64,000 nt of DNA, taken from assembly GCA_019637795.1 (NCBI GenBank), contig JAHBUY010000003.1:7409-71408 (forward strand), written 5' to 3'. The position numbers and the translations under genes were made by a program. The notes beneath the pieces are model-generated. The model was not told the origin of the DNA. It did no database searches and saw nothing but the letters and a program-made list of their open reading frames with translations. Of the stretch, positions 2,993-53,035 are shown in pieces (position 1 is the stretch's first letter; each line of letters opens with the position of its first letter). The DNA comes from a bacterium (lineage in GTDB: Bacteria; Desulfobacterota; Binatia; HRBIN30; CADEER01).

Positions 2993-3180
2993 GCGGCAAC
3001 CAGGCCCACGCGCGCCGGCAGGTCTCCCAGCGGCCCTGCCCGAACGCCCAGGCGCGCCGGACGCCAGGCGCCACCACCGCCACGCCCGGTGACGCCCGGC
3101 GCGCGCCCCTCCTGGCTGGGCGCCCGGCGCGACCGGCGGGGATGGCGCTGGACGGGTTCTTGCTCCCCGCCGGTCCCGCC

Positions 3181-3483
3181 ATGCGCAACACGTTTCTCGT
3201 CTGCTACGACATCTGCGACGACAAACGCCTGCGCGCGGTCCACAGGACCATGCGCGATTTCGGCGATCACCTGCAGTACTCGATCTTCGAGTGCCAGTTC
3301 ACCGAGAGCGATCTGCTGCGCTGCCGGCACGCGCTGAGCGAGATCATCGACCACCGCGACGACCAGGTGCTGTTCGTCGACCTCGGCCCGTCGGCGGGGC
3401 GCGGCGAGCGGGTCATCACCGCCGTCGGCCGGGCCTACTCGCCGATCGACAGCCCCTGCCTGGTGATCGACGGACGGGAGTGA
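3181..3483 (+). CDS. cas2: CRISPR-associated endoribonuclease Cas2 (alternative start 3142)
   Basis: MRNTFLVCYDICDDKRLRAVHRTMRDFGDHLQYSIFECQF carries the Cas2 signature (VxYDI ... QYSVFEC). Its stop lies 5 nt before the cas4-cas1 start. Confidence 0.85.
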   Translation: MRNTFLVCYDICDDKRLRAVHRTMRDFGDHLQYSIFECQFTESDLLRCRHALSEIIDHRDDQVLFVDLGPSAGRGERVITAVGRAYSPIDSPCLVIDGRE

Positions 3484-3488
3484 CGCCC

Positions 3489-5321
3489 ATGGCCCCGGAT
3501 CAACCCGCGGCGGCCGCTGCCGATGCGCCGGACCACGCCACGCCGGCATCGCCCGCCTACGTGCCGGCGCGCATGCTCAACGAGGTCGTCTACTGCCCGC
3601 GCCTCTTCTTCTACGAGTGGGTCGAGGGCGTGTTCGTCCACAACGCCGACACCGTCGAGGGCGCCCTCCGCCACGAGAAGCTCGAGCGCAAGGAGGACCC
3701 GCTGCCCACAGCGGCCGAGGCGGAGACCGGCGAGTCGATCCGCGCCCGCTCGGTGGAGCTGGCCAGCGATCGGCTCGGCATCATCGCCCGCATCGACCTG
3801 GTCGAGGGCGAGGGCGGCACGCTCTCCCCCGTCGACTACAAGAAGGGCGCGCCGCGCCAGGGCGACGACGGCAGCCCAGAAGCGTGGCCCGCCGATCGCG
3901 TCCAGGTCGGCGCCCAGGCGCTCATCCTGCGCGACAACGGCTACGCCTGCGACGAGGCGGTCCTCTACTACAGCGCCACCCGGCAGCGGGTCCGCGTCGC
4001 GCTCGACGCCGCCCTGGTCGACGAGATCACCGCCGCCATCGCCACCGCCCGCGCCCTGGCGGCCGGCGGCCGCATCCCGCCACCGCTGGTCGACAGCCCC
4101 AAATGCCCGCGCTGTTCGCTGGTCACCATCTGCCTGCCGGACGAGACCCGCGCCGCGGCGACGCTGCCCGCCGAGCCGGACGACGCCGCGCAGCTCGCGC
4201 TCTTCGCCACCGACGAGCCGCCGCGCGCCGCCGCGGAGGCCGACGGCGACGGGCTCGGCGAGGTGCGCCGCCTGATGCCGGCCCGCGACGACCTGCGCCC
4301 GCTCTACCTCACCGGCCACGGCCTCACCGTCGGCAAGAGCGGCGAGGTGCTGCAGGTACGCGAGTACGGCCGCGCCAAGGGCGCGCCGTCGAAGCTGATC
4401 CAGGAGGTGCGCCTCAACGAGATCTCGCAGATCAACCTGTTCGGCAACGTGCAACTGACGCCCGCCGCCGTTCAAGGTCTGTGCGCCGCCGAGAAGCCGG
4501 TCGCGTACTTCTCGTTCGGCGGCTGGTTCTACGGCCTGACGCAGGGGCTCGGCCTGCGCAACGTGTTCCTGCGCCGCGAGCAGTTTCGCCGCGCCGACGA
4601 TCCGCGCTTCGCCCTGCGGGTGGCGCGCGACCTCGTCGCGAGCAAGATCCGCAACCAGCGCACGCTGCTGCAGCGCAACCACGTCGAGCCGCCGCCGGTC
4701 GCGCTGCTGCGCCTGAAGCGCCTGGCGCAGCAGGCGCAGGCGGCCACCGCGCTCGACGAGCTGCTCGGCATCGAGGGCACGGCGGCGCGCCTCTACTTCG
4801 AGCACTTCGCCGGCATGCTCAAGGTCGAGGACGGCGACGGCGGCGCGCCCGCCTTCGACTTCCGCACCCGCAACCGCCGCCCGCCGCGCGATCCGGTCAA
4901 CGCGCTGCTGTCGTTCGCCTACGCGCTGCTCAGCAAGGATCTGATGATCACCTGCCACGGCATCGGCTTCGACCCGTTCGTCGGCTTCTATCACCAGCCG
5001 CGATACGGCCGCCCCGCCCTCGCCCTCGACCTGATGGAGGGCTTCCGCCCGCTGGTCGCCGACTCCGCCGTGCTGACGGCGATCAACAGCCGCATGGTCG
5101 GCGACACCGACTTCATCCGCGCCGGCGACGCCGTCGCGCTCACCCCCGCCGGCCGCAAGGGCTTCATTCGCGCCTACGAGCAACGCATCGACACCCTGGT
5201 CACCCATCCGCTGTTCGGCTATCGCGTCACCTACCGCCGCGTGTTCGAGATCCAGGCCCGTCTCCTGGCCCGCTTCATCAGCGGCGAGATCCTCCGCTAT
5301 CCCGGATTCGAAACCCGATGA
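3489..5321 (+). CDS. cas4-cas1: Cas4-Cas1 fusion protein (610 aa)
   Basis: The N-terminal half has the Cas4 RecB-like nuclease fold with Cys at YCPRLFFYEW and a C-terminal CPRCSLVTIC cluster. The C-terminal half is Cas1 (LYLTGHGLTVGKSGEVLQV ... NALLSFAYALL ... DLMEGFRPLVAD). It is one uninterrupted ORF. Confidence 0.9.
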   Translation: MAPDQPAAAAADAPDHATPASPAYVPARMLNEVVYCPRLFFYEWVEGVFVHNADTVEGALRHEKLERKEDPLPTAAEAETGESIRARSVELASDRLGIIARIDLVEGEGGTLSPVDYKKGAPRQGDDGSPEAWPADRVQVGAQALILRDNGYACDEAVLYYSATRQRVRVALDAALVDEITAAIATARALAAGGRIPPPLVDSPKCPRCSLVTICLPDETRAAATLPAEPDDAAQLALFATDEPPRAAAEADGDGLGEVRRLMPARDDLRPLYLTGHGLTVGKSGEVLQVREYGRAKGAPSKLIQEVRLNEISQINLFGNVQLTPAAVQGLCAAEKPVAYFSFGGWFYGLTQGLGLRNVFLRREQFRRADDPRFALRVARDLVASKIRNQRTLLQRNHVEPPPVALLRLKRLAQQAQAATALDELLGIEGTAARLYFEHFAGMLKVEDGDGGAPAFDFRTRNRRPPRDPVNALLSFAYALLSKDLMITCHGIGFDPFVGFYHQPRYGRPALALDLMEGFRPLVADSAVLTAINSRMVGDTDFIRAGDAVALTPAGRKGFIRAYEQRIDTLVTHPLFGYRVTYRRVFEIQARLLARFISGEILRYPGFETR

Positions 5322-5537
5322 CCGACTCCCGCGAGCCCGCTCTCGCCAACCCGCCCGACCGCGCGAGCGCCTCGGTGACGGCGATTCCCCGGCCCCCGCT
5401 CGCGCCGAGAATCCGTTGCCCCCACCAACCCTTGCAGCACCGCGCGCCACGGACTACTGCACGTCCCCGCGCGTCGCCCCGAGCCGCTCGCAATCCGCAC
5501 CCGTGGTCTTTGACTTTCGACAACTTGCAGTGGAACT
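5322..5537 (+). promoter_or_regulatory. CRISPR leader (216 bp between cas4-cas1 stop and first repeat)
   Basis: Position only. The degenerate terminal repeat is at the far end of the array, so this end is the leader-proximal side. Confidence 0.5.
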
Positions 5538-7904
5538 CCTTCCGCGGCTGAACAGCCGCGGCCTCATTGAAGCGACGCCGGTCTGCGCCTGGTGGAGGAC
5601 AAGGTCCGCCCTTCCGCGGCTGAACAGCCGCGGCCTCATTGAAGCCTGCGCGGCCGCGAGATGTCGGTCCGCCTGATTCTCCCTTCCGCGGCTGAACAGC
5701 CGCGGCCTCATTGAAGCGTGATCGCGCCATCGACCCCGAGGATCCGCGCCAACGCCCCTTCCGCGGCTGAACAGCCGCGGCCTCATTGAAGCCTGCAGCC
5801 GTCCGTAGTCGAGGGCCTTCGCGTCGCCTTCCGCGGCTGAACAGCCGCGGCCTCATTGAAGCGCGGGCTTGCTCGCAATCCATGGTCCGCTGCGGCACCC
5901 TTCCGCGGCTGAACAGCCGCGGCCTCATTGAAGCGCGAAGAGCCGCCCCGGCGCCTCACTCCACAAGAACTCCTTCCGCGGCTGAACAGCCGCGGCCTCA
6001 TTGAAGCCCGATCTCGTGCGCTTCGGGCGGTATCGCGACACGCCGCCCTTCCGCGGCTGAACAGCCGCGGCCTCATTGAAGCACGCCCGGCGCGGGCGGC
6101 ACGGCCACGCCGAAGCCGCCTTCCGCGGCTGAACAGCCGCGGCCTCATTGAAGCACCGCCGCCTCGTCCGCCGCGCTCATCGCTGCACCTCCGCCTTCCG
6201 CGGCTGAACAGCCGCGGCCTCATTGAAGCGACACCTATCGCTTCGGCGTCACCAACGACACCTGCCTTCCGCGGCTGAACAGCCGCGGCCTCATTGAAGC
6301 ACCTGCTCGGGGCCCAGCTCGCCCAGAAGGCTCCCCACCTTCCGCGGCTGAACAGCCGCGGCCTCATTGAAGCTCGCGGCAACCGACGCGGATGGAGAGC
6401 ACGCCATCGCGCCTTCCGCGGCTGAACAGCCGCGGCCTCATTGAAGCCTCACCTTCGCCGCGCAGGGCATCTACGCGACGCCGACCTTCCGCGGCTGAAC
6501 AGCCGCGGCCTCATTGAAGCCACCCACCACAATCGGCGGTTCAATCCGCTAGAAAGGCCTTCCGCGGCTGAACAGCCGCGGCCTCATTGAAGCCGCCTGC
6601 ACCGCGACATGGGCGCGCGATGGATCGACCTTCCGCGGCTGAACAGCCGCGGCCTCATTGAAGCGAGCCAGCGTTGCGCGTTGGCGAAGCCGCGCAACGC
6701 CTTCCGCGGCTGAACAGCCGCGGCCTCATTGAAGCCTCCTCATAGATCCGCCGCGTCTCGGCCGGCAGCGTCGACCTTCCGCGGCTGAACAGCCGCGGCC
6801 TCATTGAAGCCGCGCACGCAAGCGCCGTCTGCCGCGTATCTCAATTATCCTTCCGCGGCTGAACAGCCGCGGCCTCATTGAAGCCTGCTCGGTGTCGTGA
6901 CGATAGCCGTCGATCGCACCCTTCCGCGGCTGAACAGCCGCGGCCTCATTGAAGCGCGCCGTCGAGGCTGGCGCCGACGAGGCTGGCGCGGACCCTTCCG
7001 CGGCTGAACAGCCGCGGCCTCATTGAAGCCTGGCAAGCTGACACGGACACTTACGAGATCGTCGACCCTTCCGCGGCTGAACAGCCGCGGCCTCATTGAA
7101 GCCAGCCCCCTCATTTCCGCTCCCTGAGTCACGACTCCCACCTTCCGCGGCTGAACAGCCGCGGCCTCATTGAAGCACGGTCACGCGCGGCCCATCCTTC
7201 TTGGCCGTGCCCGGCCTTCCGCGGCTGAACAGCCGCGGCCTCATTGAAGCCGGCCTACCCTGGCGGCCTCGATCTGCCCCACGGCTCCTTCCGCGGCTGA
7301 ACAGCCGCGGCCTCATTGAAGCGCGCGCTCGACCCACGGTACATCTTGGAGTTCACGGGGCCTTCCGCGGCTGAACAGCCGCGGCCTCATTGAAGCCAGA
7401 TTGTCGGTGAGGTGGTGTCGGGTCTCCGCACCCTTCCGCGGCTGAACAGCCGCGGCCTCATTGAAGCCAGCTCGGCGGCTTTCTGCTGCGCCGCGTTCTT
7501 GTCCTTCCGCGGCTGAACAGCCGCGGCCTCATTGAAGCAACAAGATAAACTTTACGTGCCAGTGGAAACTGAGGTACCTTCCGCGGCTGAACAGCCGCGG
7601 CCTCATTGAAGCAGCCTCAGGCGTTCCCACGTCGCGTCGCGCGAGCCACCCTTCCGCGGCTGAACAGCCGCGGCCTCATTGAAGCATCGCCGCCATCCCT
7701 CACCTCCATTCAAAAAGGGGCCGGCCTTCCGCGGCTGAACAGCCGCGGCCTCATTGAAGCGCTGCCACCGCTCTCACCACCGCTGACGAATGCGGCCTTC
7801 CGCGGCTGAACAGCCGCGGCCTCATTGAAGCCACTCGACGCTGGTGCAGGCAGACCTCGACCAGAAGCCCTTCCGCGGCTGAACAGCCGCGGCCTCAATT
7901 AGGT
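5538..7904 (+). CRISPR. CRISPR array: 33 repeats of 36 bp (CCTTCCGCGGCTGAACAGCCGCGGCCTCATTGAAGC) and 32 spacers of 34-39 bp. The last repeat is degenerate (…CCTCAATTAGGT).
   Basis: Repeat starts counted directly at 5538, 5610, 5682, 5757, 5827, 5899, 5972, 6047, 6119, 6194, 6265, 6338, 6412, 6485, 6558, 6629, 6700, 6775, 6849, 6920, 6994, 7067, 7141, 7215, 7287, 7361, 7432, 7503, 7577, 7650, 7725, 7796, 7869. The repeat has an internal 7-bp palindrome GCGGCTG/CAGCCGC and an ATTGAAGC 3' tail. Confidence 0.97.
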
Positions 7905-8121
7905 CAAGCCGGCCGTCTGGGCGCCGCGAGCGGCGCCCAGACGGAGAAGCGCGGTCCGCGTGCTGCGCGTGCGCGGGCCTTCCAGGTGGGACGGACGCGG
8001 TGGCGCGCCGCAGCGTCGGCGCTGCGCGTTCGTTCTCGGCGCCGGGCTTGCCACGCGGCGGCGGCGGGCGGTCGCGCGGGAGCGCGGCCCGCCAGGGCGC
8101 CAACGCCGCGCGGGGCCCGGG

Positions 8122-9635: not shown

Positions 9636-10460
9636 ATGGACACGAGGGAGGATACGATGCGATTCGGAGCGGACGTCACGGCGGTGGTCACCGGCGCCGG
9701 CGGCGGCATCGGGCGCGGGTTGGCGCTGGAGATGGCGCGCCGCGGCTGCGCGGTGGCGCTGGTCGACATCGACGGCGAGGGGCTGGCCGAGACGCAGCGC
9801 CTGATCGCCACCCGCAGCAGCGCGCACCGCGTCGACGTCGCCGACCGCGACGCCATGGCCGCCCTGCCCGAGGCGGTGCGCGCCGCCCACGGCGGCGCCC
9901 AGGTGCTGCTCAACAACGCCGGGGTCTCGGTCGCGGCGCCGGTCGCCGAGTTGCCGCTCGCCGATCTCGAGTGGCTGATGGGGGTCAACTTCTGGGGCAC
10001 CGTCCACGCCTGCAAGTTCTTCCTGCCGCTGCTGCTGGCGGCGCCGGCGGCCCGCATCGGCACCGTGCTGTCCGACTTCGCCCTGTTCAGCCTGCCGACC
10101 AAGTCGGCGTACTGCGCCTCGAAATTCGCGCTGCGCGGCTTCAGCGAGTCGCTGCGCGCCGAGCTGGTCGGCACCGGCGTGCGCCTCACCTGCGCCTATC
10201 CGGGTCCGGTGGCCACCGGTCTGGTGGCGCGCGGCCGCGCCTGGGATGCCGCCAAGCAGGCGATGGAAGCGCAGTTCGTCGCCGCCCGCGCCCTGCCGGT
10301 CGCCACCGTCGCCCGCCGCATCTGCGACGCCGTCGAACGCGGCCGGCCGCGCGTCCTCATCGGCCGCGAGACGCACGCCATCGATCTGGCGATGCGCCTC
10401 ATGCCCGCCGCCACCGGCACGCTCATCGGCCGTTTCAAGGGACGGATCCCCTTCCTCTGA
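9636..10460 (+). CDS. SDR family short-chain dehydrogenase/reductase (alternative start 9657)
   Basis: TGAGGGIGRGLALEMARRG is the Rossmann motif. NNAG and the catalytic triad YCASK are present. Confidence 0.9.
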   Translation: MDTREDTMRFGADVTAVVTGAGGGIGRGLALEMARRGCAVALVDIDGEGLAETQRLIATRSSAHRVDVADRDAMAALPEAVRAAHGGAQVLLNNAGVSVAAPVAELPLADLEWLMGVNFWGTVHACKFFLPLLLAAPAARIGTVLSDFALFSLPTKSAYCASKFALRGFSESLRAELVGTGVRLTCAYPGPVATGLVARGRAWDAAKQAMEAQFVAARALPVATVARRICDAVERGRPRVLIGRETHAIDLAMRLMPAATGTLIGRFKGRIPFL

Positions 10461-11557: not shown

Positions 11558-11668
11558 GCTCCACAGTCATCCATGGACGGCGGAGCTTGAACAGGGGCCG
11601 AGCCCTGGCGGCGACGGATTTTCCGGCGCCCCCCGCCGGCGCGGGGCGCGACGCCGGCGCCGGGCGGG

Positions 11669-18566: not shown

Positions 18567-19640
18567 TCAGGGCTCGGCCGCGGGTCGCGGACGGGTCGCC
18601 AGGACGGCGTGGAAGCCGGCGCGCATGGCGCCGCGGACGGCGCGGTAGAAGCGCTGCTGTCCGGCCGGCGGCAGCGGCCAGGCGCCGAGGTGCAGGGCGA
18701 GCATGCCGAGCGCCCGCCAATCGCGCAGCGGCAGGGTCGGCGCCTGGCGCAGGGCGGCGGCGAAGAGCTGCCGCGAGCGCGCCACCTGGCCGTTGGAGAA
18801 CGCCTTGCGGCTGGCGATGCGCAGGCCCTCGGCGTGGCTGCGCGCCGCGTCGCGGGCGGTGAAGCCGGGCACGTAGGCGCGGAAGCGCTCGAGGGCGCGG
18901 ACGTAGCCGCGGACGAAGTCGTCGTAGGTGGTCGACATGCTGCCGGCGCGCACCCGGTAGCCGGTGAGCACCGCCGGCAGCAGGCGGACCTCGTAGCCGC
19001 TGCACGCCGCGGCGCGCACCCACATCTCGAAGTCCTCGCAGCTCCCCAGCGACTCGTCGAACAGGCCGGCGCGGGCGAACACCTCGCGCCGCGCCACCAC
19101 CGTGCTGCCGTTGCCGACGTGGTTGCGGCGGATCAGGTCGCGCGCCGACGGCGCCCGGCAGCGCGACAGCAGGTACTGGCCGGTGCGGGCGCCGCGCTCG
19201 TCGAGGTAGGCGGAGTGCGAGAAGGTGAGGCCGACGCGCGGCGCGGCGGCGAGCAGCGCCAGGTGCCGCTCCGCCTTGCGGGCGAACCAGAGATCGTCGG
19301 CGTCGCAGAAGCCGATCAGCGGCGCGCGCGCCAGCAGCAGGCCGCTGTTGCGGGCGCCGGCGAGACCGCGGTTCGCCTGCACGGCGACGGTGAGGCGCGG
19401 GTCGGCGATGCCGGCCAGCACCGCGAGGCTGTCGTCGCGCGAGCCGTCGTCGACCACCACCACCTCGAGATCCGGCATGGTCTGCGCGAACAGCGACGCC
19501 AGGGTGTCGCGGACGTAGGGCGCGGTGTCGTAGCTGGGCACGATCACGGAGAGGCGCAGGCGCCGCGCCGGCACCGCCGCCCGGCGGAGGACGGTGAGCT
19601 GGCGCGGCAACGGGCCGGGGTCGCGGAGGGCGGCGGTCAC
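18567..19640 (-). CDS. family 2 glycosyltransferase, paralog of 12844..13932
   Basis: LSVIVPSYDTAPY ... VVVVDDGSRDDS ... FCDADDLW. About 60% of the aligned residues are identical to the first GT2. The GTG start at 19640 overlaps the upstream TGA. Confidence 0.85.
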   Translation of the reverse strand: MTAALRDPGPLPRQLTVLRRAAVPARRLRLSVIVPSYDTAPYVRDTLASLFAQTMPDLEVVVVDDGSRDDSLAVLAGIADPRLTVAVQANRGLAGARNSGLLLARAPLIGFCDADDLWFARKAERHLALLAAAPRVGLTFSHSAYLDERGARTGQYLLSRCRAPSARDLIRRNHVGNGSTVVARREVFARAGLFDESLGSCEDFEMWVRAAACSGYEVRLLPAVLTGYRVRAGSMSTTYDDFVRGYVRALERFRAYVPGFTARDAARSHAEGLRIASRKAFSNGQVARSRQLFAAALRQAPTLPLRDWRALGMLALHLGAWPLPPAGQQRFYRAVRGAMRAGFHAVLATRPRPAAEP

Positions 19641-38258: not shown

Positions 38259-38598
38259 CCTGCTCGTCGCCGCGCTCTTCGTCGTCGGCGCCGCCTTCAT
38301 CCTGCTGGCGGCGATCGGCCTGCTGCGCATGCCGGACCTGTTCCTGCGCATGTCGTGCAGCACCAAGGCCTCGACCCTCGGCATCGTCGCCTGCCTGCTC
38401 GGCGCGGCGCTGCACTTCGGCGCCCTCGGCGCCGCCGCGCGCGCCGGCGCCGGGGCGCTGTTCCTGCTCCTCACCGCGCCGGTGGCGGCGCAGGTGATCG
38501 GCCGCGCCGCCTATCTCGTCGGCGTGCCGCTGTGGCGCGGCACGATCGCCGACCAGTTGCGCGGGCGATACGAGCGCGCGCGCGGCACGCTGCGTTGA
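38251..38598 (+). CDS. mrpG: Na+/H+ antiporter subunit G
   Basis: MADLLVAALFVVGAAFILLAAIGLLRMPDLFLRMSCSTKASTLG ... Confidence 0.8.
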   Translation: MADLLVAALFVVGAAFILLAAIGLLRMPDLFLRMSCSTKASTLGIVACLLGAALHFGALGAAARAGAGALFLLLTAPVAAQVIGRAAYLVGVPLWRGTIADQLRGRYERARGTLR

Positions 38599-38629
38599 AC
38601 CCCCTACCCCCCTATGGTACCGACCGCGC

Positions 38630-38917
38630 ATGGCGATCACGCGCGAGGAGGTCCGGCACATCGCGCTCCTGGCGCGCCTGCCGCTGAACGCGGACGAGGA
38701 GATCGCCTTCGCGCAGCAGCTCGATCACATCCTCGCGGCGTTCACCAACCTCGACCGGCTCGACACCACGGGCGTCGAGCCGACGGCGCACATCGCGCCG
38801 CTGGCGACGCCGTTCCGCGACGACGTGGTCAGCACCACGCCCGACCCCGACGCCTGGCTCGCCAACGGCCCGGCGCGCGACGGGCGCTTCTTCAAAGTGC
38901 CGAAGATCATCGAATGA
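38630..38917 (+). CDS. gatC: Asp-tRNA(Asn)/Glu-tRNA(Gln) amidotransferase subunit C
   Basis: [38 protein letters not shown] ... [10 protein letters not shown]. Confidence 0.9.
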
Positions 38918-40416
38918 CGACGCCCGCCACAGGGGGCGGCGGCGGCGCGCCGGGGTCGGCGCTGGTCGACCTCACCATCGACGCCGCGGCGGCCGCGCTG
39001 CGCGCCCGCCGCGTCTCCTCGACGGAGCTGACGACCGCCGCCCTGGCCCGCATCGAGGCGACCGAACCGACGCTGCACAGCTTCATCACCGTCACGCCCG
39101 AGCTGGCGCTGGCGCAGGCGCGGGAGGCCGACGCGCGCCTGGCCGCCGGCGCGCCGCGCGGACCGCTCGACGGCATCCCGCTCGCGATCAAGGACATCAT
39201 CAACACCCGCGGCGTGCGCACCACCGCCGGCTCGCGCATCCTCGAGCAGTTCGTCTCGCCCTACGACGCGACGGTCACCCAGCGGCTGCGCGCCGCCGGC
39301 GCGGTCTGCGTCGGCAAGGCCAACTGCGACGAGTTCGCGATGGGCTCGTCGAACGAGAGCTCGGCCTACGGCGGGGCCCGCAATCCGTGGGATCCGACGC
39401 GCGTGCCGGGCGGCTCGTCCGGCGGCTCGGCGTCGGCGGTGGCGGCGCGGCAGTGCCTGGGCGCGCTCGGCACCGACACCGGCGGCTCGATCCGCCAGCC
39501 GGCGGCGCACTGCGGCATCGTCGGGCTGAAGCCGACCTACGGGCGGGTGAGCCGCTACGGCGTCATCGCCTACGCCTCGTCGCTCGACCAGGTGGGCCCG
39601 ATGGCGCGCACCGTGCGCGACTGCGCCCACCTGCTCGGCGGCATCGCCGGCCACGACCGCTTCGACTCGACCTCGGTGCCGCGCCCGGTGCCGGACTACG
39701 CGGCGGCGCTCGACGGCGGCGTGCGCGGCCTGCGCATCGGGCTGCCGAAGGAGTACTTCGTCGAGGGCATGTCGCCCGAGGTGGCCGACGCGGTGCGCGG
39801 CGCGGTGCGCCAGCTCGAAGCGCTCGGCGCGGTCGTCGAGGACGTCTCGCTGCCGCACACCGAGTACGCGGTCGCGGCGTACTACCTGATCGCCACCGCC
39901 GAGGCGAGCTCGAACCTGGCGCGCTACGACGGCACCCGCTACGGCCTGCGCGTCGACCGCGGGCAGGGGCTGCTCGACATGTACCAGCAGACCCGCGGCG
40001 CCGGCTTCGGCGCCGAGGTGAAGCGCCGCATCATGCTCGGCACCTACGCCCTGTCGGCCGGCTACTACGACGCCTTCTACCTGAAGGGACAGCAGGTCCG
40101 TACCCTGATCCGCCGCGACTTCGAGCAGGTCTTCTCGACCTGCCAGGCGATCGTCACGCCGACCGCGCCGACCACGGCCTTCAGGCTGGGCGAGAAGATC
40201 ACCGATCCGCTGGAGATGTACCTGTCCGACATCTTCACCATCTCGGTGAACCTGGCCGGCCTGCCGGGGCTGTCGCTGCCGTGCGGCTTCGACCGCCAGG
40301 GCTTGCCCATCGGCCTGCAGATCATCGGCCGGCCCTTCGACGAGGAGACCGTGCTGCGCGCGGCGCACGCCTACGAACAGTCCACCGACTGGCACCAGCG
40401 CCGCCCGGACCTATGA
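38912..40416 (+). CDS. gatA: Glu-tRNA(Gln) amidotransferase subunit A
   Basis: Amidase-signature [13 protein letters not shown] ... GSIRQPAA. The ATGA overlaps the gatC stop. Confidence 0.95.
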
Positions 40417-40498
40417 ACGGAGAACGTCACCACGGAGGCACGGACACACGGAGCACGGGACTCACCTCCGTGTCTCCGTGCCTCCGTGGTGAGAAATC

Positions 40499-41944
40499 AT
40501 GACGGATTACGAAGCGGTCATCGGGCTGGAAGTGCACGCCGAGCTGCTCACCGAGTCGAAGATCTTCTGCGGCTGCTCGGCGAAGTTCGGCGCGGCGCCG
40601 AACGAGAACACCTGCCCGCTCTGCCTGGCCCTGCCGGGGGTGCTGCCGGTGCTCAACCGGCGGGTGGTCGAGTTCGCGATCAAGGCCGGCCTGGCGACCC
40701 ACTGCGCGATCGCGCCGCTCAGCCGCTGGGCGCGCAAGAACTACTTCTACCCCGACCTGCCGAAGGGCTATCAGATCAGCCAGTACGAGCTGCCGATCTG
40801 CCTCGACGGACGGATCGACATCGAGGTCGACGGCACCACCCGCCCGGTGCGCCTCACCCGCATCCACATGGAGGAGGACACCGGCAAGAACATCCACGAC
40901 CAGCACGGCGACGCCAGCCTGGTGGACTACAACCGCTGCGGCGTGCCGCTGCTCGAGATCGTCAGCGAGCCCGACCTCCGCACCCCGGCGGAGGCCGGCG
41001 CCTACCTGCGCAAGCTGCGCCAGATCCTCCAGTACCTCGAGGTGTGCGACGGCAACATGGAGGAGGGCAGCTTCCGCTGCGACGCCAACATCTCGGTGCG
41101 GCCGCGCGGCACCGCGGCGTTCGGCACCAAGGCGGAAGTGAAGAACATGAACTCCTTCCGCGCCGTCGAGAAGGCGATCGAGCACGAGATCGAGCGCCAG
41201 ATCGACCTCGTCCGCCACGGCGAGAAGGTGGTCCAGGAGACGCGGCTGTGGGATCCCGACCGCGAGGAGACGCGCTCGATGCGCTCCAAGGAGTCGGCGC
41301 ACGACTACCGGTACTTCCCCGATCCCGACCTGCTGCCGCTGGAAGTCTCGCGCCAGTGGATCGCGGACGTGCAGGCGACCATGCCCGAGCTGCCCGACGC
41401 GCGCCGGGCGCGCTTCGCCAGCGCCTACGGCCTGCCCGCCTACGACGCCGAGGTGCTGACCGCGCGCAAGGACATCGCCGACTATTTCGAGACCGCGGTG
41501 CGCGCCGGCGGCAGCGCCAAGGCGGTCAGCAACTGGGTGATGGGCGACATCCTGCGCATCGTCCGCGAGCGCAAGCTCGACGAGGCGCTGGTCATCCGCG
41601 ACTGGCCGGTGTCGCCGGCGCATCTCGCGGAGATGCTGACGCTGATCGACGACGACACGATCAGCGGCAAGATCGCCAAGACCGTGTTCGAGCAGATGGT
41701 CGCGACCGGCAAGGCGCCGGCGGCGATCGTCGCCGAGCAGGGCCTCAGCCAGGTCAGCGACAGCGGCGCCATCGAGGCCGCCATCGCCGCGGTGCTCGAT
41801 GCCAATGCCGACAAGGTGGCCGAGTACCGCGCCGGCAAGGACAAGCTCTTCGGCTTCTTCGTCGGCCAGGTGATGAAGGCCACGCAGGGCAAGGCGAATC
41901 CGGGGAAGGTGAACGAGCTGCTCAAGCAACGGTTGGCAGAATGA
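40499..41944 (+). CDS. gatB: Glu-tRNA(Gln) amidotransferase subunit B
   Basis: [27 protein letters not shown] ... is the GatB N-terminal signature. Confidence 0.95.
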
Positions 41945-41946
41945 CA

Positions 41947-42060
41947 GGTTGTTAGGTTGCTAGTTGTTAGGTTGTTAGGTTGTTAGGTTGTTAGGTTTTC
42001 CGGGCGACTCATACTGATAACCTAACAACCTAACAACCTAACAACCAACAACCTAACAAC
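41947..42060. repeat. AT-rich inverted repeat whose arms are tandem octamers ((GTTGTTAG)n ... loop ... (CTAACAAC)n); long hairpin between gatB stop and cysK RBS
   Basis: Left arm 41947..41997 has 6 units (one variant GTTGCTAG). The loop is ttttccgggcgactcatactgat. Right arm 42019..42060 has 5 units (one missing a T). RBS aaagggagg sits at 42067 and the cysK ATG at 42079. Confidence 0.85.
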
Positions 42061-42078
42061 TTGCTAAAGGGAGGCGTC

Positions 42079-43011
42079 ATGGCCCGCTTGCACAAGGACA
42101 TCACCGAGACCATCGGCCACACGCCGCTGATCCGGCTCAATCGGGTCGCCGCCGGCGTCGGGGCGGAGATCTACGCCAAGTGCGAGTTCTTCAACCCGCT
42201 GTCGAGCGTCAAGGACCGCATCGGCGTCAACATGATCGACGCCGCCGAGCAGGCGGGGCGCATCGACCACGACACGGTGATCATCGAGCCGACCAGCGGC
42301 AACACCGGCATCGCGCTCGCCTTCGTCTGCGCCGCGCGCGGCTATCGACTGATCCTCACCATGCCGGACTCGATGAGCATGGAGCGGCGCAAGCTGCTGC
42401 ACTTCCTCGGCGCCGAGCTGGTGCTGACGCCCGCCGCCGAGGGCATGACCGGCGCCATCCGCAAGGCTGAGGAGCTGGCGCGCCAGCACGGCAAGTCCTT
42501 CATCCCGCAGCAGTTCCAGAATCCCGCCAATCCCGACGTGCACCGCCGCACCACCGCCCTCGAGCTGTGGGACGACACCGACGGGCGCATCGACGTCCTG
42601 ATCAGCGGCGTCGGCACCGGCGGCACCATCACCGGCGTCGCCGAGGTCCTCAAGCAGCGCAAGCCGTCGTTTCGCGCCGTCGCCGTCGAGCCGAGCAAGT
42701 CGCCGGTGCTCTCCGGCGGCCAACCCGGCCGGCACGCCATCCAGGGCATCGGCGCCGGCTTCGTGCCGGCCATCCTCAACACCGGCATCATCGACGAGAT
42801 CGTCCAGGTCGCCGACGACGACGCGCTGGCCATGGCGCGCCGCGTCGGCCGCGAGGAAGGCATCCCCTGCGGCATCTCCAGCGGCGCCGCCGTCTGGGCC
42901 GCGCTGCAGGTCGCCGGCCGGCCGGAGAGCGCCGGCAAGCTGATCGTCGCCGTGCTCGCCAGCTCCGCCGAGCGCTATCTCAGCACCGCCCTGGTCGAAG
43001 GCCTCGGCTGA
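42079..43011 (+). CDS. cysK: cysteine synthase A (O-acetylserine sulfhydrylase)
   Basis: [10 protein letters not shown] has the PLP lysine. [10 protein letters not shown] and GTGGTITG are present. Confidence 0.95.
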
Positions 43012-43050
43012 GCGCACGCGGCGCGGCGGGCGCGGCCCGTCGATCGCTCG

Positions 43051-44253
43051 ATGACAGACGCAGTCGCAGCGCCCGCCGCCGAGCGCCCGGTCGGAGTCGG
43101 GCGCGCCCACCGCTACCTCCCCGAGCTCGAGGCGCTGCGCGGCTGGGCCATGCTGTTGGTCTACGCCTTCCATCTCAACGGCACCGTCGTCCGCCGCTCG
43201 GCGGGCACCGCCGACGAACCGACGCCGCTGACCGCGTTCGTGCTCGCCGGCCACACCGGCGTCAGCCTGTTCTTCGTCCTCAGCGCCTTCCTGTTGGCGC
43301 TGCCGTTTCTCGCCGAGGCGGACGGCGGACGGCACGTGTCGCGGCCCGCCTACGCGAGCCGCCGGGCGCTGCGCATCCTGCCGCTCTACTGGTTCGCGAT
43401 CGCCGTCGCCACCATCCTCACCGCCGAGCGACTGGTCGATCTGGCGCGCGCCCTGCCCTACATGTTCTTCCTCAACTCGGTCACCGACTGGTCGACGCCG
43501 ATGCTGCCCTACAGCGGCGCCTGGTGGAGCCTGGGGACGGAGGCGCAATTCTACCTCGTCCTGCCGCTGCTGCCGCTGCTCCTGGCGACGCGCGCCGGGC
43601 GGATCGCCGGCGTCGTGCTGCTGCTCGCCTGGCTCGCCGCGTACGGCGCATTCCTCACCCGCGCCCTGCGCATGGACACCCTCCCCGGACAGGTGCGCCT
43701 CGCCTACTCGCTGCTCGGACGCGCGCCGCTGTTCCTGTGCGGCATCGCCGCCGCCGCGCTCTATCGCCGACACGGCGCCGCCTGGCGGCAGCGGCTCGCG
43801 GCCCGACCGCTGCTGCGCCGCGGCGGCGCCGACGCCATCCTGCTCGCCGTGCTGCTCGCGCTCGGCCTGCTGCTGCAATGGGTGATCGTCGGCACGCCGA
43901 CGCGGGCCGAGGCGCCGCCGCGGCACGTCTGGCACGTCCTGGAAGGCGCGCTGTGGGCGTCCGTCGTGCTCCTCGTCCTCGTCGCGCCGCTGCGCAGCGC
44001 GCGCCTGATCACCAACCGCGCCACCATCTGGCTGGGCGTGCTCTCGTACTCGGTCTACATCTGGCACCTGCCGATCCAGCAGTTCGCCTTCCGCTGGACC
44101 CGCCAGCTCGGCATCCCCCTGCCGCTCGCCTGGAACGCCCGCACGATCGCCGTCGCGGCGGTCGCGACCGCCGCCTGCCTCGCCGTCTCGACCCTCACCT
44201 ACCGCTGGATCGAGCGCCCGTTCCTGACCCGCAAGGAACGGGTGGCCGACTGA
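43051..44253 (+). CDS. acyltransferase family 3 (OafA-like) membrane protein
   Basis: ELEALRGWAMLLVYAFHL ... FFVLSAFLL ... The ORF is 400 aa and polytopic. Confidence 0.85.
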   Translation: MTDAVAAPAAERPVGVGRAHRYLPELEALRGWAMLLVYAFHLNGTVVRRSAGTADEPTPLTAFVLAGHTGVSLFFVLSAFLLALPFLAEADGGRHVSRPAYASRRALRILPLYWFAIAVATILTAERLVDLARALPYMFFLNSVTDWSTPMLPYSGAWWSLGTEAQFYLVLPLLPLLLATRAGRIAGVVLLLAWLAAYGAFLTRALRMDTLPGQVRLAYSLLGRAPLFLCGIAAAALYRRHGAAWRQRLAARPLLRRGGADAILLAVLLALGLLLQWVIVGTPTRAEAPPRHVWHVLEGALWASVVLLVLVAPLRSARLITNRATIWLGVLSYSVYIWHLPIQQFAFRWTRQLGIPLPLAWNARTIAVAAVATAACLAVSTLTYRWIERPFLTRKERVAD

Positions 44254-44298
44254 CCGCGGCCGCGTCCCCGCGAGCGCGGCGAGCGCCAGGTCCTCGCC

Positions 44299-45459
44299 TC
44301 ACTGGCCGGCCATCGTGAACAGCGGCCGCCCCTCGCCCAGTTCGTCGAGCGGCACCGCCTCGACCCGCTCCGCCAGCGCGAAACGCTTGCCGCCGGGGTA
44401 GACCACCGCTACCCGTGCCAGACCGAGATCGTCGAGCGCGATGCGAATGGACGGCGTCAGCCGCGGCGCATCCGTGCGTTTGCACTCGATGCCCAGCAAG
44501 GTGTCGCCGCGACGCAAGAGCAGGTCGATCTCGGCCCCCTGGTGCGTCGCCCAGAAGAACGCCTCGTCGTGCGCTTCGATCGCCAGCACCTGCTCGATCA
44601 CGAATCCCTCCCAGGATGGCCCGATGGCGGGATGGCTCAGCAAGGCCTTGTCGCTGGCGATGCCCAGGAGTTGGTGCAGCAAGCCGCTGTCGCGCACGTA
44701 CACCTTCGGCGCCTTCACCTGGCGCTTGCGCAGGTTGGCGTGCCAGGGCTGGAGCTGTCGAACCATGAAAGCGTCGACGAGTAGGTCGAGGTAGCGGCGC
44801 GCGGTCGATTCGCTCACCCCCAACGCCCGCGCTGGCACGGCGGCGTTCCATAGCCGCCCATGATAGTGCGCCAGCATCGTCCAGAAGCGGTGCAGCGCGA
44901 CCGCCGGCACCCGAACGCCCCACTGCGGCAGGTCGCGCTCCAGCAACGTCTGGATGAGCTGCTTGCGCCAGGCCAGGCTGTCCGCCTCGCTCGCCGCCAG
45001 GTACGACCGCGGCAGCCCGCCGCGGCGCCACAAAACCTGCGCCCCCTCGGCCCCCACCTCGGCCAGCGAGAAGCCGCCCATGGCGATGCGTTCGACCCGC
45101 CCGGCCAGGCTTTCCGAGCTCTGGCGCAACAGATCGCCCGAGGCACTGCCCAGGATCAGGAAGCGCGCCGGCGCCGCGCGCCGGTCCGCCAACACCCGCA
45201 ACGCGGGAAACAGCTCCGGCCGCCGCTGCACCTCGTCAATCACCACCAGACCCTTGAGCGGCCGCAGCGCCGTCATCGGCTCGTCCAACCGCGCCAGGCT
45301 GGCGGGATCCTCCAGATCGAAGTAATTGGCGGACTCCTCGCTCAACAGCTCGCGCGCCAGCGTCGTCTTCCCGCACTGCCTCGGCCCGACCAACAAGACG
45401 ATCCGGCTGCGCTGCAGCGCGGCGGTCAGAGCCGTGAGGAGAATGCGGCGAGTGACCAT
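44299..45459 (-). CDS. AAA-family ATP-binding protein with DUF4143 C-terminal domain
   Basis: P-loop GPRQCGKTTLA and Walker B LVVIDEVQ are present. The ORF reaches 45477; the start is probably M7. Confidence 0.8.
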   Translation of the reverse strand: MVTRRILLTALTAALQRSRIVLLVGPRQCGKTTLARELLSEESANYFDLEDPASLARLDEPMTALRPLKGLVVIDEVQRRPELFPALRVLADRRAAPARFLILGSASGDLLRQSSESLAGRVERIAMGGFSLAEVGAEGAQVLWRRGGLPRSYLAASEADSLAWRKQLIQTLLERDLPQWGVRVPAVALHRFWTMLAHYHGRLWNAAVPARALGVSESTARRYLDLLVDAFMVRQLQPWHANLRKRQVKAPKVYVRDSGLLHQLLGIASDKALLSHPAIGPSWEGFVIEQVLAIEAHDEAFFWATHQGAEIDLLLRRGDTLLGIECKRTDAPRLTPSIRIALDDLGLARVAVVYPGGKRFALAERVEAVPLDELGEGRPLFTMAGQ

Positions 45460-50582: not shown

Positions 50583-51494
50583 ATGAAGCGTCTCGCAGGC
50601 GTCGTCGGCACCGTCGCGGCGGTGCTGTTCTGTTCCGCCGCCGCCCGCGCGGCGATCATCTCCTGTGGCAGCGTCACTGCCGTGCGCGGCAGCTCCGCTC
50701 CGGTGACGATCTCCCTCCAGCTCGAGGGAGACGAGGTCGTCGCCGGCACCCAGAACGACCTCCAGTTCGACAGCGACGCGTTCGACATCGCGCCGCGGGA
50801 CTGCGTCATCAATCCCGCCATCGGACCCGACACCGAGGCCGACAAGACCCTGAGCACCAGCCTGCCGCCGGGCGAGATCCCGAGCGTGCGCAACCTGGTG
50901 GTGGCGCTCGACAACACCAACGCCATTCCCTCCGGAGCGCTCTACACCTGCAGTTTCCACGTCCGCGGCAGCGCCGAGCTCGGCGAGCACGTCCTCACCA
51001 ACGTCAACGTCCGCGCCAGCAACCCGCAGGGCATGGTCGTCCCGACCACCGCCGGCGACTGCACGATCACCGTGCAGGACGTGTCGCCGACCCCGACTCC
51101 GCGCTGCACCAACGACGACGACTGCCCGAGCGGCGAGGTGTGCGTGAACAACACCTGCGTCACCGCCACGCCGACCAGGACCCCGATCGGCTACTGCACC
51201 GGCGACCGCGACTGCCCCAACGGCCAGGTGTGCGTGAACAACATGTGCGTCACCCCGACGCCGACCCGCACCCCGATCGGCTACTGCACCGGCGACCAGG
51301 ACTGCCCCAACGGCCAGGTGTGCGTGAACAACATGTGCGTCGCCGTCACGCCCACCGCGACGAGGAAGAGCGGCGGGGGCGGGGGGTGCAGTTGCGAGAT
51401 CGATCCCGGCGCCCGCGGCCGCAGCGGCGACGTGCTGGCGGTGCTCCTGCCGGCGCTGATCCTGGCGCTGCGCTGGCGGCGGCGCCGCGCCTGA
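50583..51494 (+). CDS. cell-surface protein: cohesin-like N-terminal domain, three Cys-rich repeats, MYXO-CTERM-like sorting tail
   Basis: A signal peptide is followed by a cohesin-like beta-sandwich segment (SAPVTISLQLEGDEVVAGTQNDLQFDSDAFDI ...). Three copies of CTxDxDCPxGxVCVNNxCV are separated by TPTPTRTP linkers. The tail is GGGGGCSCEID ... VLAVLLPALILALRWRRRRA. Confidence 0.65.
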   Translation: MKRLAGVVGTVAAVLFCSAAARAAIISCGSVTAVRGSSAPVTISLQLEGDEVVAGTQNDLQFDSDAFDIAPRDCVINPAIGPDTEADKTLSTSLPPGEIPSVRNLVVALDNTNAIPSGALYTCSFHVRGSAELGEHVLTNVNVRASNPQGMVVPTTAGDCTITVQDVSPTPTPRCTNDDDCPSGEVCVNNTCVTATPTRTPIGYCTGDRDCPNGQVCVNNMCVTPTPTRTPIGYCTGDQDCPNGQVCVNNMCVAVTPTATRKSGGGGGCSCEIDPGARGRSGDVLAVLLPALILALRWRRRRA

Positions 51495-51759: not shown

Positions 51760-51911
51760 ACGGTGCTCCTCTGGCTGGGAAAGGTATCCCTCACCGCCTA
51801 GCACACCCGCACCCGCCGCGCCTAGCCAAGAACCACCAAGAACCGCGGATGCAGGACTGACCCCTGCCGAGGGCGCGGAGAGGATCCGTGCTCATCGGCG
51901 GCCAGCGGCGT

Positions 51912-52889
51912 TCATCCGTGGCGCAGCAGCCTCGCCGCCTCGCGGGCGTAGTACGTCAGGATCAGATCGGCGCCGGCGCGGCGGATGGCGGTCAGGGTCT
52001 CCAGCATCACCCGCTCCTCGTCAAGCCAGCCATTCCGCGCCGCCGCCTTGATCATCGCGTACTCGCCGCTCACCTGGTAGGCGGCGACCGGGTAGCCGAA
52101 GTGCTCCTTCACCCGCCAGACGAGATCGAGGTAGGGCAGCGCCGGCTTCACCATGACGATGTCGGCGCCCTCGTTGATGTCCATCTCGACCTCGCGCAGC
52201 GCCTCCTGGGCGTTGGGCGGATCCATCTGGTAGCCGCGCCGGTCGCCGAACTGCGGCGTCGACTCCGCCGCCTCGCGGAACGGGCCGTAGAACCCGGAGG
52301 CGAACTTGGCGGCGTAGGACATGATCGCCACCTGGTCGAAGCCCTCCTCGTCGAGCGCCTCGCGGATCGCGTTCACCCGCCCGTCCATCATGTCCGACGG
52401 CGCCACCAGGTCGGCGCCGGCACGGGCGTGCGTCAGCGCCTCCTTGGCGAGCAGATCGAGGGTGGCGTCGTTGTCGACCTCGCCCTCGGCGATGACGCCG
52501 CAGTGGCCGTGATCGGTGTACTCGCACAGGCAGACGTCGGTGATCACCACCAGGTCCGCGACCGCCTGCTTGATCGCGCGCACCGCCTGCGGCACCACGC
52601 CGTCGTCGCGGTAGGCGTGCGAGCCGGTGGCGTCCTTCTTCTCGGGAATGCCGAACAGGATCACCGCCGGGATGCCGAGATCGCGCGCCTCGCGACAGGT
52701 CTCGGTCAGCCGGTCCACCGACTGCTGCGCCACCCCGGGCATCGAACCCACCGGATGCTCGACGCCGCGCCCCGGCACCGCGAAGAGCGGCAGGATGAGG
52801 TTGTCGACGCTGAGCCGCGTCTCCCGCACCATCCGCCGCAGCGTCTCCGTGCGCCGCAGCCGGCGCGGGCGATAGATGGGGAATTCCAT
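51912..52889 (-). CDS. hemB: porphobilinogen synthase (delta-aminolevulinic acid dehydratase)
   Basis: [14 protein letters not shown] and the active-site Lys region [10 protein letters not shown] are present. The Cys cluster [12 protein letters not shown] is the Zn site. Confidence 0.95.
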
Positions 52890-52894
52890 GTCGT

Positions 52895-53035
52895 TGCGCT
52901 AACCACAGATGAACACGGATGGCCACAGATCAACACGGGTCCGCCCCCCTCCCCGCCGGCTGGGGTGGGAGGCGGACCCGTGTTCATCTGTGGCCATCTG
53001 CGTTCATCTGAGGCTTCCGGAGGTACGTCTCGATC
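52895..53035. terminator. long imperfect palindrome between the cobA-hemD 3' end and hemB. It has two copies of each arm and could form alternative stems.
   Basis: Left arm ggccacagatcaacacgggtccgcc (52921..52945) pairs with ggcggacccgtgttcatctgtggcc (52971..52995) with 1 mismatch. A second left copy cacagatgaacacgg (52904..52918) is the perfect complement of the right arm. The loop is itself quasi-palindromic. An extra gttcatctg lies at 53001..53009. Confidence 0.6.

Follow-up and report, generated by a model that had tools for sequence, protein, structure and literature searches.

The spacer between gatB and cysK on contig JAHBUY010000003.1, from a bacterium of the class Binatia, is filled by a long AT-rich hairpin whose two arms are built from tandemly repeated octamers, and the question that this locus raises is what kind of element the hairpin is and what it might do there. 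The stretch of DNA that was analysed (the window, 64 kb in length) had earlier been given a sequence-only reading, in which the hairpin was described as two arms of about six and about five octamer units and was offered as a terminator of gatCAB, a structured 5′ element of cysK, a protein-binding array or a slippage-prone, phase-variable element. Comparison with related, metagenomic and viral sequences shows that the element is one of many hairpins in a dispersed class spanning several phyla and phages, and that across a Candidatus Binatia clade the pairing of the arms is conserved and not their sequence, which evolves at an unusual speed, with unit sequence, copy number and GC content all changing. 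Members of this class, here called tandem-repeat-arm hairpins (TRHs), lie in an intergenic spacer and consist of 3–10 units of 7–10 nt, a short loop or a nested hairpin, and a complementary array.

The hairpin between gatB and cysK

Direct reading of the sequence and Tandem Repeats Finder agree on a hairpin of about 46 bp between gatB and cysK, at positions 41945–42063 of the window (Table 1). Tandem Repeats Finder resolves a left array (41946–41997) of 6.6 copies of the 8-nt unit AGGTTGTT with 91% matches and a right array (42019–42060) of 5.4 copies of the complement AACCTAAC with 94% matches, and an inverted-repeat search gives arms of 50 nt each (41945–41994 and 42014–42063) that are 90% complementary. 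The left arm reads, in order, GTTGTTAG, the 7-mer GTTGCTA, four perfect GTTGTTAG units and a degenerate GTTTTCCG; in the right arm a degenerate CTGATAAC comes first, followed by three perfect CTAACAAC units, the 7-mer CAACAAC and a final CTAACAAC. With up to three mismatches allowed, the 16-mer GTTGTTAGGTTGTTAG occurs nine times in the 64-kb window, compared with 0.01 expected, and every occurrence lies inside the focal element, the focal unit type being present in one copy within the window.

The predicted RNA fold has an energy of −80.1 kcal/mol, compared with −41.1 ± 4.1 kcal/mol for dinucleotide-shuffled sequences (z = −9.6), and none of 200 shuffles folded as well. The structure comprises an outer helix of 14 bp and an inner helix of 32 bp with a 3 × 3 internal loop between them and an apical loop of 19 nt, and the internal loop coincides with the two 7-nt units, which stand at mirror positions in the left (GTTGCTA) and right (CAACAAC) arms. 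The GC content is 41% in the stem and 41–47% locally, in a window of 73% GC. Repeat finding and folding together bear out the long hairpin of about six plus about five octamer units, and the element is, as had been remarked, unusual for a genome of such high GC. Some figures of the sequence-only reading needed adjustment: the loop is 19–27 nt by the definition used rather than 23 nt, the right arm ends 8 nt before GGGAGG rather than 6 nt before the ribosome-binding site of cysK, and the GC content is 73% rather than 70%.

The identities of gatA, gatB and cysK were confirmed with NCBIfam, and the GatB protein is 76–91% identical to those of Candidatus Binatia relatives. At the Rfam gathering threshold only CRISPR repeats pass within the window, and at a relaxed E-value the focal region gives only sub-threshold matches to eukaryotic miRNA precursors.

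Pairing is conserved while the units are replaced

Contigs of Candidatus Binatia relatives (designated by L and a number) with GatB 88–92% identical supplied seven orthologous gatB–cysK spacers, and the hairpin is present in all eight gatB–cysK loci compared. The orthologous hairpins start at most 4 nt from the gatB stop codon, end 9–20 nt before the ATG and always keep the Shine–Dalgarno (SD) sequence, and in the orthologues the last bases of a repeat unit double as the gatB stop codon TAG. Units of the GTTGTTAG type are found in the window (6/5 units), L366/369, L370 and L375–380 (about 4/4 units), with a hairpin GC of 0.37–0.43, units of the GGCTGTYG type in L367/368 (0.57), and units of the GGGGTTRN type in L365 and L371–373 (0.67–0.70). 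On the gatB tree, all four clades contain the AT-rich unit type, and the GC-rich types have three separate origins. A structural alignment made with RNAalifold contains 24 pairs, nine of which show double compensatory changes. Paired cells amount to 92.5%, compared with 80.6% in shuffles (0 of 500 reaching the observed value) and 23–50% in slid controls, and double-change cells number 19, compared with 6.9 in shuffles (again 0 of 500). This covariation supports pairing of the arms across the orthologues.

How the units are replaced can be followed between L371 and L375, which share 98.97% identity over 9.5 kb and in which the focal hairpin is the sole stretch below 85% identity among the 100-column blocks compared. 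At this hairpin (10333–10440 in L371, 11444–11541 in L375), the two contigs differ as GTTGTTAG versus GGGGTTAG in every unit of both arms. A second hairpin, in the mrpG–gatC spacer (6830–6960 in L371, 7945–8060 in L375), has a homologous loop in the two contigs, and each of its units differs by the same substitution (CACAGAGG versus CGCAGAGG), with a complementary change in the other arm. L371 is the GC-richer of the two at both spacer hairpins. With its loop homologous and the substitution identical in all units, the mrpG–gatC hairpin shows a concerted change in place, toward higher GC, and not the insertion of an unrelated cassette.

Within populations no such variation is seen: the six metagenome assemblies L375–380, of one population, are identical at gatB–cysK, as are the three assemblies L371–373 of another. 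Elsewhere, among the matches listed, there are four pairs of metagenome contigs in which both members cover one and the same locus, and the copies within each pair are identical. Copy number has changed between lineages and is constant within the populations compared. The earlier suggestion that the element is slippage-prone is backed, as a history of slippage, by the 6/5 units of the window, four of them perfect in a row, compared with about 4/4 in relatives.

Related hairpins in the window and in other genomes

A window-wide inverted-repeat scan, together with a sliding fold regressed on GC, identifies three hairpins with repeat-built arms as the strongest fold outliers of the 64 kb, namely the focal one, one between gatA and gatB and one upstream of hemB (Table 1).

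Table 1. Positions of the focal hairpin, its borders and the other tandem-repeat-arm hairpins in the window
Feature	Position	Strand	Remarks
gatB stop codon TGA	41942–41944	+	Hairpin begins 1–3 nt downstream
5′ arm, about 6.6 units of GGTTGTTA	41945–41997	+	Includes the 7-nt variant GTTGCTA; four consecutive perfect units at 41963–41994
Apical loop region	41998–42018	+	Edges resemble degenerate units GGTTTTCC and CTGATAAC
3′ arm, about 5.4 complementary units of CCTAACAA	42019–42063	+	Includes 7-nt CAACAAC mirroring the 7-mer of the left arm
cysK SD sequence GGGAGG and start codon ATG	42069–42074 and 42079–42081	+	Just beyond the stem
gatA–gatB spacer hairpin	40427–40492	+	Arms of 27 nt, 96% complementary; fold −54 kcal/mol, z = −7.7
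hemB hairpin (hemD–hemB spacer)	52903–53013	−	14 nt upstream of the hemB ATG (52889); fold −104 kcal/mol, z = −12.9
hemB–infA spacer remnant	51820–51912	−	Decayed, GC-enriched, of the same unit family; intact in L370 at 18752–18862

The gatA–gatB hairpin is laid out as TCAC-CACGGAGG-CACGGACA-CACGGAG, a loop, and CTCCGTGT-CTCCGTGC-CTCCGTG-GTGA; it has orthologous copies in L370, L371–374 and L375–380, and the same termini recur in viral contigs. In the hemB hairpin, each arm of about 50 nt is made of units of about 10 or 20 nt (CACAGATGAA and CACGGATGGC), an inner hairpin of CCCCTCCCC and GGGGAGGGG is nested inside, and the minus-strand open reading frame (ORF) upstream of hemB ends at 52984, so that its final 30 or so coding nucleotides (52984–53013) lie in the 5′ arm. 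With the mrpG–gatC spacer, the TRH positions in Binatia number five (gatB–cysK, gatA–gatB, hemD–hemB, hemB–infA and mrpG–gatC), all of them between co-directional genes of conserved clusters. The occurrence of similar hairpins at the other four positions argues against the earlier proposal of a structured 5′ element of cysK.

Gain, loss and decay are seen at these neighbouring spacers. The gatA–gatB hairpin is common to the window, L370, L371 and L375, with arms that are nearly unchanged and loops and flanks that are divergent; L366/369 and L365 retain only a GC-enriched remnant of its right arm, and L367 has another hairpin with ACGCGAAG units in its place. At hemD–hemB and hemB–infA, the intact and the decayed copies are swapped between the window and L370, the hemD–hemB position of L370 being occupied by a one-armed remnant. 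Since one-armed remnants drift to high GC, as at gatA–gatB of L366 and L365 and at hemB–infA of the window, the intact AT-rich hairpins are being maintained against the compositional pressure to which the remnants yield. One relative, L001, is without either element.

A metagenome scan for three GTTGYTAG units returned at least 120 stretches, 43 of which have a complementary array just downstream among the matches listed. Within that same set, nearly all of the 43 paired copies lie in contigs of 60–70% GC, the G/T-rich array is always on the 5′ side, and none of the contigs encodes gatB or cysK, so that the element is not specific to cysK. One contig with units of the GGTTGTTA type is Binatia-like and one with units of the GGTTGCTA type belongs to the Acidobacteriota (Thermoanaerobaculia). 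TRH-bearing contigs hold 41 TRHs of various unit types in 0.42 Mb, and the gatB loci of 80 diverse genomes hold five in 1.3 Mb. A fold-based census of hairpins of at least 18 bp proved too permissive in DNA of 73% GC and was discarded. No useful match came from BLAST searches with the focal element against plasmids or with a class 2 copy (the gatA–gatB type; see below) against cultured phages, probably because the arms were masked as low complexity.

In viral contigs, three consecutive units were found in 44 stretches for CTCCGTG, 32 for CTTCGTG, three for a shuffled unit and one for GTTGYTAG, which makes CACGRAG units 10–15-fold enriched over the shuffled unit. The viral CACGGAG copies share the termini T(T/C)CAC|CACGGAG ... 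CTCCGTG|GTGA(A/G), which extend beyond the search pattern, and many of them carry in their loop a second hairpin of another unit type. The generic pattern of three GTTGYTNN units gave at least 119 stretches in viral contigs, almost all of them unpaired, unrelated arrays, with two paired among the matches listed. The contig L212, with its portal and capsid genes, is from a genuine phage, and different TRHs occupy successive gaps between its structural genes. Such gaps are where phages place hairpins for RNA processing or stability.

Several further hairpins were noted along the way. Nesting in the manner of Russian dolls, inside the loops of TRHs or of GC-rich hairpins, occurs in the viral contigs L206, L207, L212 and L235/L236, in L247, and at 7945–8060 of L375. 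In the gammaproteobacterial metagenome-assembled genome (MAG) 15dZY3.bin.69, the gatA–gatB spacer (L031, 9859–9941) holds a hairpin of ACACGGGGA nonamers whose unit resembles the CACGGAG of the window. A hairpin of the Proteobacteria MAG SZUA-178 (L035, 6679–6780) has four copies of TTGGTCA in its 3′ arm, which we take to be the heptamer of the cyanobacterial short tandemly repeated repetitive sequence STRR2; this may indicate a relationship between direct STRR arrays and inverted pairs. In a Candidatus Binatia MAG (L002), a CCCCTCACCCCGACCCTCTCCCAGAGGGAGAGGGGG element upstream of gatB (9880–9900) is like the 'class 4' multicopy sequence of Geobacter, and two perfect hairpins at 5414–5514 and 11568–11648 have arms of 43 nt and 32 nt that are not tandem repeats. 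Recurring intergenic hairpins whose arms are likewise free of tandem repeats, for example ATGTCATTCCCGCGCAGGCGGGAATC, are found in Desulfosarcina widdelii (L017, 12762–12834 and 17770–17842) and in L077 (11485–11638), and are presumably REP-like elements of those genomes (REP, repetitive extragenic palindromic sequence).

Elsewhere in the window, a CRISPR array at 5533–7897 has about 30 repeats with a period of 74 nt, eleven of which match Rfam CRISPR-DR16 (RF01330), and a large ORF (3093–5321) lies just upstream of it. Another ORF, 50583–51494, contains three copies of a 90-nt coding repeat (51089–51356, 86% matches) that encode a Cys-rich module ...IGYCTGD.DCPNGQVCVNNMCV...; the protein looks secreted, and its orthologues give faint matches to the EB, Dickkopf and DUF7107 families of Pfam.

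Hairpins of this kind have been described before. In Geobacter metallireducens, pairs of arrays on opposite strands and at variable distance were listed as 'predicted global regulator binding sites' (Aklujkar et al. 2009, BMC Microbiol 9:109, PMC2700814). Class 1 consists of four tandem octanucleotides of consensus GTTGCTYN in 24 pairs, with insertion sequences (ISs) of the IS110 and IS481 families at a fixed distance from the pairs, class 2 of three repeats of TCTCCGTS[Y] in 21 pairs, and class 3 of five heptanucleotides MTYCTGA in eight pairs whose printed alignment shows elements of 75–115 nt (PMC2700814). The pairs are often inside operons, as at proB–proA, between the genes for the alpha and beta chains of pyruvate dehydrogenase E1, and between those for heterodisulfide reductase B and A, and the authors proposed that 'global regulators' like IHF or HU bind them (PMC2700814). 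The focal hairpin shares with class 1 the inverted arrays, 41945–41997 and 42019–42063, paired in an intergenic spacer, and its GTTGTTAG (five copies) and GTTGCTA(G) match five to six of the six fixed positions of the published consensus, although position 7 is Y in the consensus and A in the window (GTTGTTAG and GTTGCTAG). The gatA–gatB hairpin fits class 2: its right arm, CTCCGTGT CTCCGTGC CTCCGTG, and its left arm are 96% complementary, and in the form CTCCGTGT CTCCGTG CCTCCGTG the right arm agrees with the class 2 consensus. The element size of class 3 is the same as here. The hosts differ, Geobacter belonging to the Desulfuromonadota and the window to a Binatia-like lineage.

In Xanthomonas, arrays of the heptamer GGGAATC form 70–75 convergent inverted pairs per genome, mostly intergenic and transcribed, and between two species the type (a single array or an inverted pair) is kept and the lengths differ (Rehm et al. 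2015, PLoS One, PMC4692102). The order of a plus-strand array followed by a minus-strand array is the same as here, whereas Xanthomonas has one G-rich unit throughout the genome, discussed with a focus on G-quadruplexes, and the present class has many unit types, the focal one AT-rich. Beggiatoaceae and cyanobacterial STRR arrays are direct 7-nt arrays in intergenic spacers, often a few nucleotides before a start codon and with a patchy phylogeny, and the TAACTGA repeats of Beggiatoaceae are inverted in one of 170 sets (MacGregor 2015, PMC4679880); they differ from the present elements in being direct repeats only, without a hairpin. The kind has thus been known from Geobacter since 2009 and from Xanthomonas since 2015, with its function left at guessed regulator binding sites, and the present hairpin adds a member.

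Other well-known hairpins are less close. REP sequences, bacterial interspersed mosaic elements (BIMEs) and REP doublets forming hairpins (REPINs) are dispersed intergenic hairpins, often between co-transcribed genes, that stabilise the upstream mRNA and serve as targets of IS110-family elements; a REPIN is a hairpin of about 100 nt with two inverted halves. Each REP arm is an imperfect palindrome of 20–40 nt that ends in a conserved GTAG or CGTC tag, and a genome has one or few families of them, linked to REP-associated tyrosine transposases (RAYTs), whereas the arms in the window are tandem octamers without internal palindromy and without either tag. The sequence-only reading had set the focal hairpin apart from a generic REP-like element recurring at many loci; that recurrence is essentially what was found, in that the same class and the same unit family are widespread. 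The RNase III hairpins that phage T7 carries between its cistrons, and operon processing sites like them, are long stems that fall precisely in the intercistronic gap and leave the downstream ribosome-binding site free. Experiments have demonstrated their cleavage, and their arms are not built from tandem repeats. An integron attC site is an imperfect hairpin whose outer ends carry the core sites 5′-RYYYAAC and GTTRRRY-3′; the motifs GTTAGGT and ACCTAAC do occur here, but in reversed order, with GTT... on the 5′ side and ...AAC on the 3′ side on both strands, and the assignment was rejected. A transposable element of the miniature inverted-repeat type (MITE) does not match either, as no target-site duplication flanks the window, orthologous or viral copies.

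Possible roles of the gatB–cysK hairpin

These comparisons lead us to favour, at a little under an even chance, the reading that the focal TRH is a stem-loop in a polycistronic gatCAB–cysK mRNA that affects its processing, stability or insulation, and that its arms evolve by slippage and compensated change. A near-perfect duplex of 30–46 bp between cistrons would block 3′ exonucleases and would offer RNase III and other double-strand-specific RNases a substrate, while the ribosome-binding site of cysK would be kept clear of upstream structure. The stability and expression of the flanking cistrons might thereby be uncoupled, as with REP and BIME sequences and the intercistronic hairpins of phage T7. 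The repeat structure of the arms would be a by-product of their growth, in which slippage adds or removes whole units and several pairing registers are possible, and new variants would spread in concert through all units of both arms, from AT-rich to GC-rich in this lineage of 73% GC. Such a function of the stem-loop in the transcript is suggested by the extreme fold, by the covarying pairs kept in all orthologous spacers while the units change, by the maintenance of intact AT-rich hairpins, by the position of all five Binatia TRHs between co-directional genes and by the TRHs in successive structural-gene gaps of a phage. That neither a promoter-like site, a U-tract terminator nor an Rfam family was found at the hairpin is in keeping with it.

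Several observations weigh against this mRNA stem-loop. Fold energies and G–U counts of the eight orthologues show that the sense and antisense folds are equally stable, without G–U asymmetry, and the covariation of the arms would also be expected from DNA-level processes, for example if one arm were copied from the other. The gatA–gatB copy has been lost in L365, L366 and L369 and replaced in L367, so that a hairpin is not indispensable at every site. In metagenomes, TRHs lie between divergent (7), convergent (5) and co-directional (13) genes, as judged from crude GC3-based frame calls. Finally, some families are over-represented with conserved termini across unrelated contigs (CACGGAG 44, CACGAAG 32, shuffled unit 3), which structural selection alone does not explain and which suggests that these families are mobile or that a sequence-specific factor is involved.

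The main rival, on the improbable side but with an appreciable chance, is that the hairpin is a selfish, non-autonomous mobile element like a REPIN or a MITE, copied by an enzyme into intergenic hairpins and their loops and persisting because new copies home into old ones and not through any need of the host; this would be compatible with a host function, as for REPs. It would account for the same unit families at unrelated loci in Binatia-like bacteria, Acidobacteriota, Geobacter, a gammaproteobacterial MAG and phages, for the TCAC-CACGGAG...CTCCGTG-GTGA termini conserved outside the search pattern and the 10–15-fold enrichment of CACGRAG, for copies nested in the loops of other copies or hairpins, including the hemB hairpin of the window, and for L001, which lacks both elements. 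The IS110 and IS481 elements of G. metallireducens at a fixed distance from class 1 pairs, a situation known for REPs, point the same way (PMC2700814). However, no copy in the window, the orthologues or the viral contigs showed a target-site duplication, no candidate for a transposase was identified, copies that share a genome or phage are mostly of different unit types instead of being near-identical, the mrpG–gatC arms change in concert and in place around a homologous loop between genomes 99% identical, and the gatB–cysK hairpin is present at every one of the eight loci compared. A related proposal, to which we assign a somewhat smaller chance, is that TRHs are a distinct self-propagating element class of Binatia, Acidobacteriota, Geobacter, Xanthomonas-like Gammaproteobacteria and phages, made or remodelled by dedicated machinery. 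A hairpin-targeting recombinase, a Y1-type transposase or templated resynthesis of the arms would be candidates for this machinery, which would insert TRHs into hairpin loops and may rewrite all units of both arms at once. Such machinery would account for termini that are conserved, for nested copies and for whole-array unit differences between genomes 99% identical.

Contiguous operator arrays of 7–8 bp do exist, such as the metboxes of MetJ and the heptads of the omega repressor, and the octamers might by analogy be DNA-level sites of a nucleoid-associated or ribbon-helix-helix type regulator. The conserved CACGGAG core, with a base between cores that varies and is sometimes not mirrored across the arms, would fit such an array, as would the proposal of Aklujkar et al. 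for the Geobacter pairs (PMC2700814). This reading nevertheless seems unlikely, and for the gatB–cysK locus the sequence-specific protein-binding array of the sequence-only reading finds no support, since the orthologues replace the units (GTTGTTAG, GGCTGTYG, GGGGTTRN) and keep the pairing, which argues for a structural role, in RNA or in single-stranded DNA. Moreover, the distance between arms ranges from 12 to more than 200 nt and nested hairpins are tolerated, unlike in an operator, and the dozens of unrelated unit types per contig would each need a protein of their own. The earlier suggestion of an intrinsic terminator of gatCAB, with cysK transcribed independently, draws on the very stable stem-loop right after the gatB stop codon. 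We consider it very improbable: the stem is followed by CTTGCTAAAGGGAGG, without a U-tract on either strand, a consensus scan of 38400–44400 gave no promoter-like or terminator-like site near the focal hairpin, and the 8-nt gap to the cysK SD sequence leaves no room for a promoter. In addition, a similar hairpin lies within the operon at gatA–gatB, the SD sequence and ATG of cysK follow directly, and gatB, hairpin and cysK are conserved as a unit. A hypermutable contingency repeat, whose copy number would switch the expression of cysK, had been suggested by the octamer length, which is not a multiple of three, and could draw further on the 6/5 versus 4/4 copies between lineages and on the whole-array unit differences between genomes 99% identical. 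Such a phase-variable element is scarcely credible here, since the six assemblies L375–380, from different samples, the three assemblies L371–373 and the four metagenome contig pairs are each identical, with no copy-number variation among the assemblies compared. With the stop codon on one side of the array and the SD sequence on the other, a change in its length could shift no reading frame, and it would alter no promoter spacing either.

With an intercistronic mRNA stem-loop as the tentatively preferred reading, the gatB–cysK spacer presents, across close relatives, a structure whose pairing persists although each repeat unit, in either arm, can be exchanged; AT-rich units gave way to GC-rich ones on three independent occasions. 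As the class extends across several phyla and phages and some of its families have conserved termini, a dedicated mobilising or recognising factor becomes testable. For high-GC uncultured lineages, TRHs are a source of strong intercistronic structure, and they are also local hotspots of divergence that could confuse assembly and strain typing.

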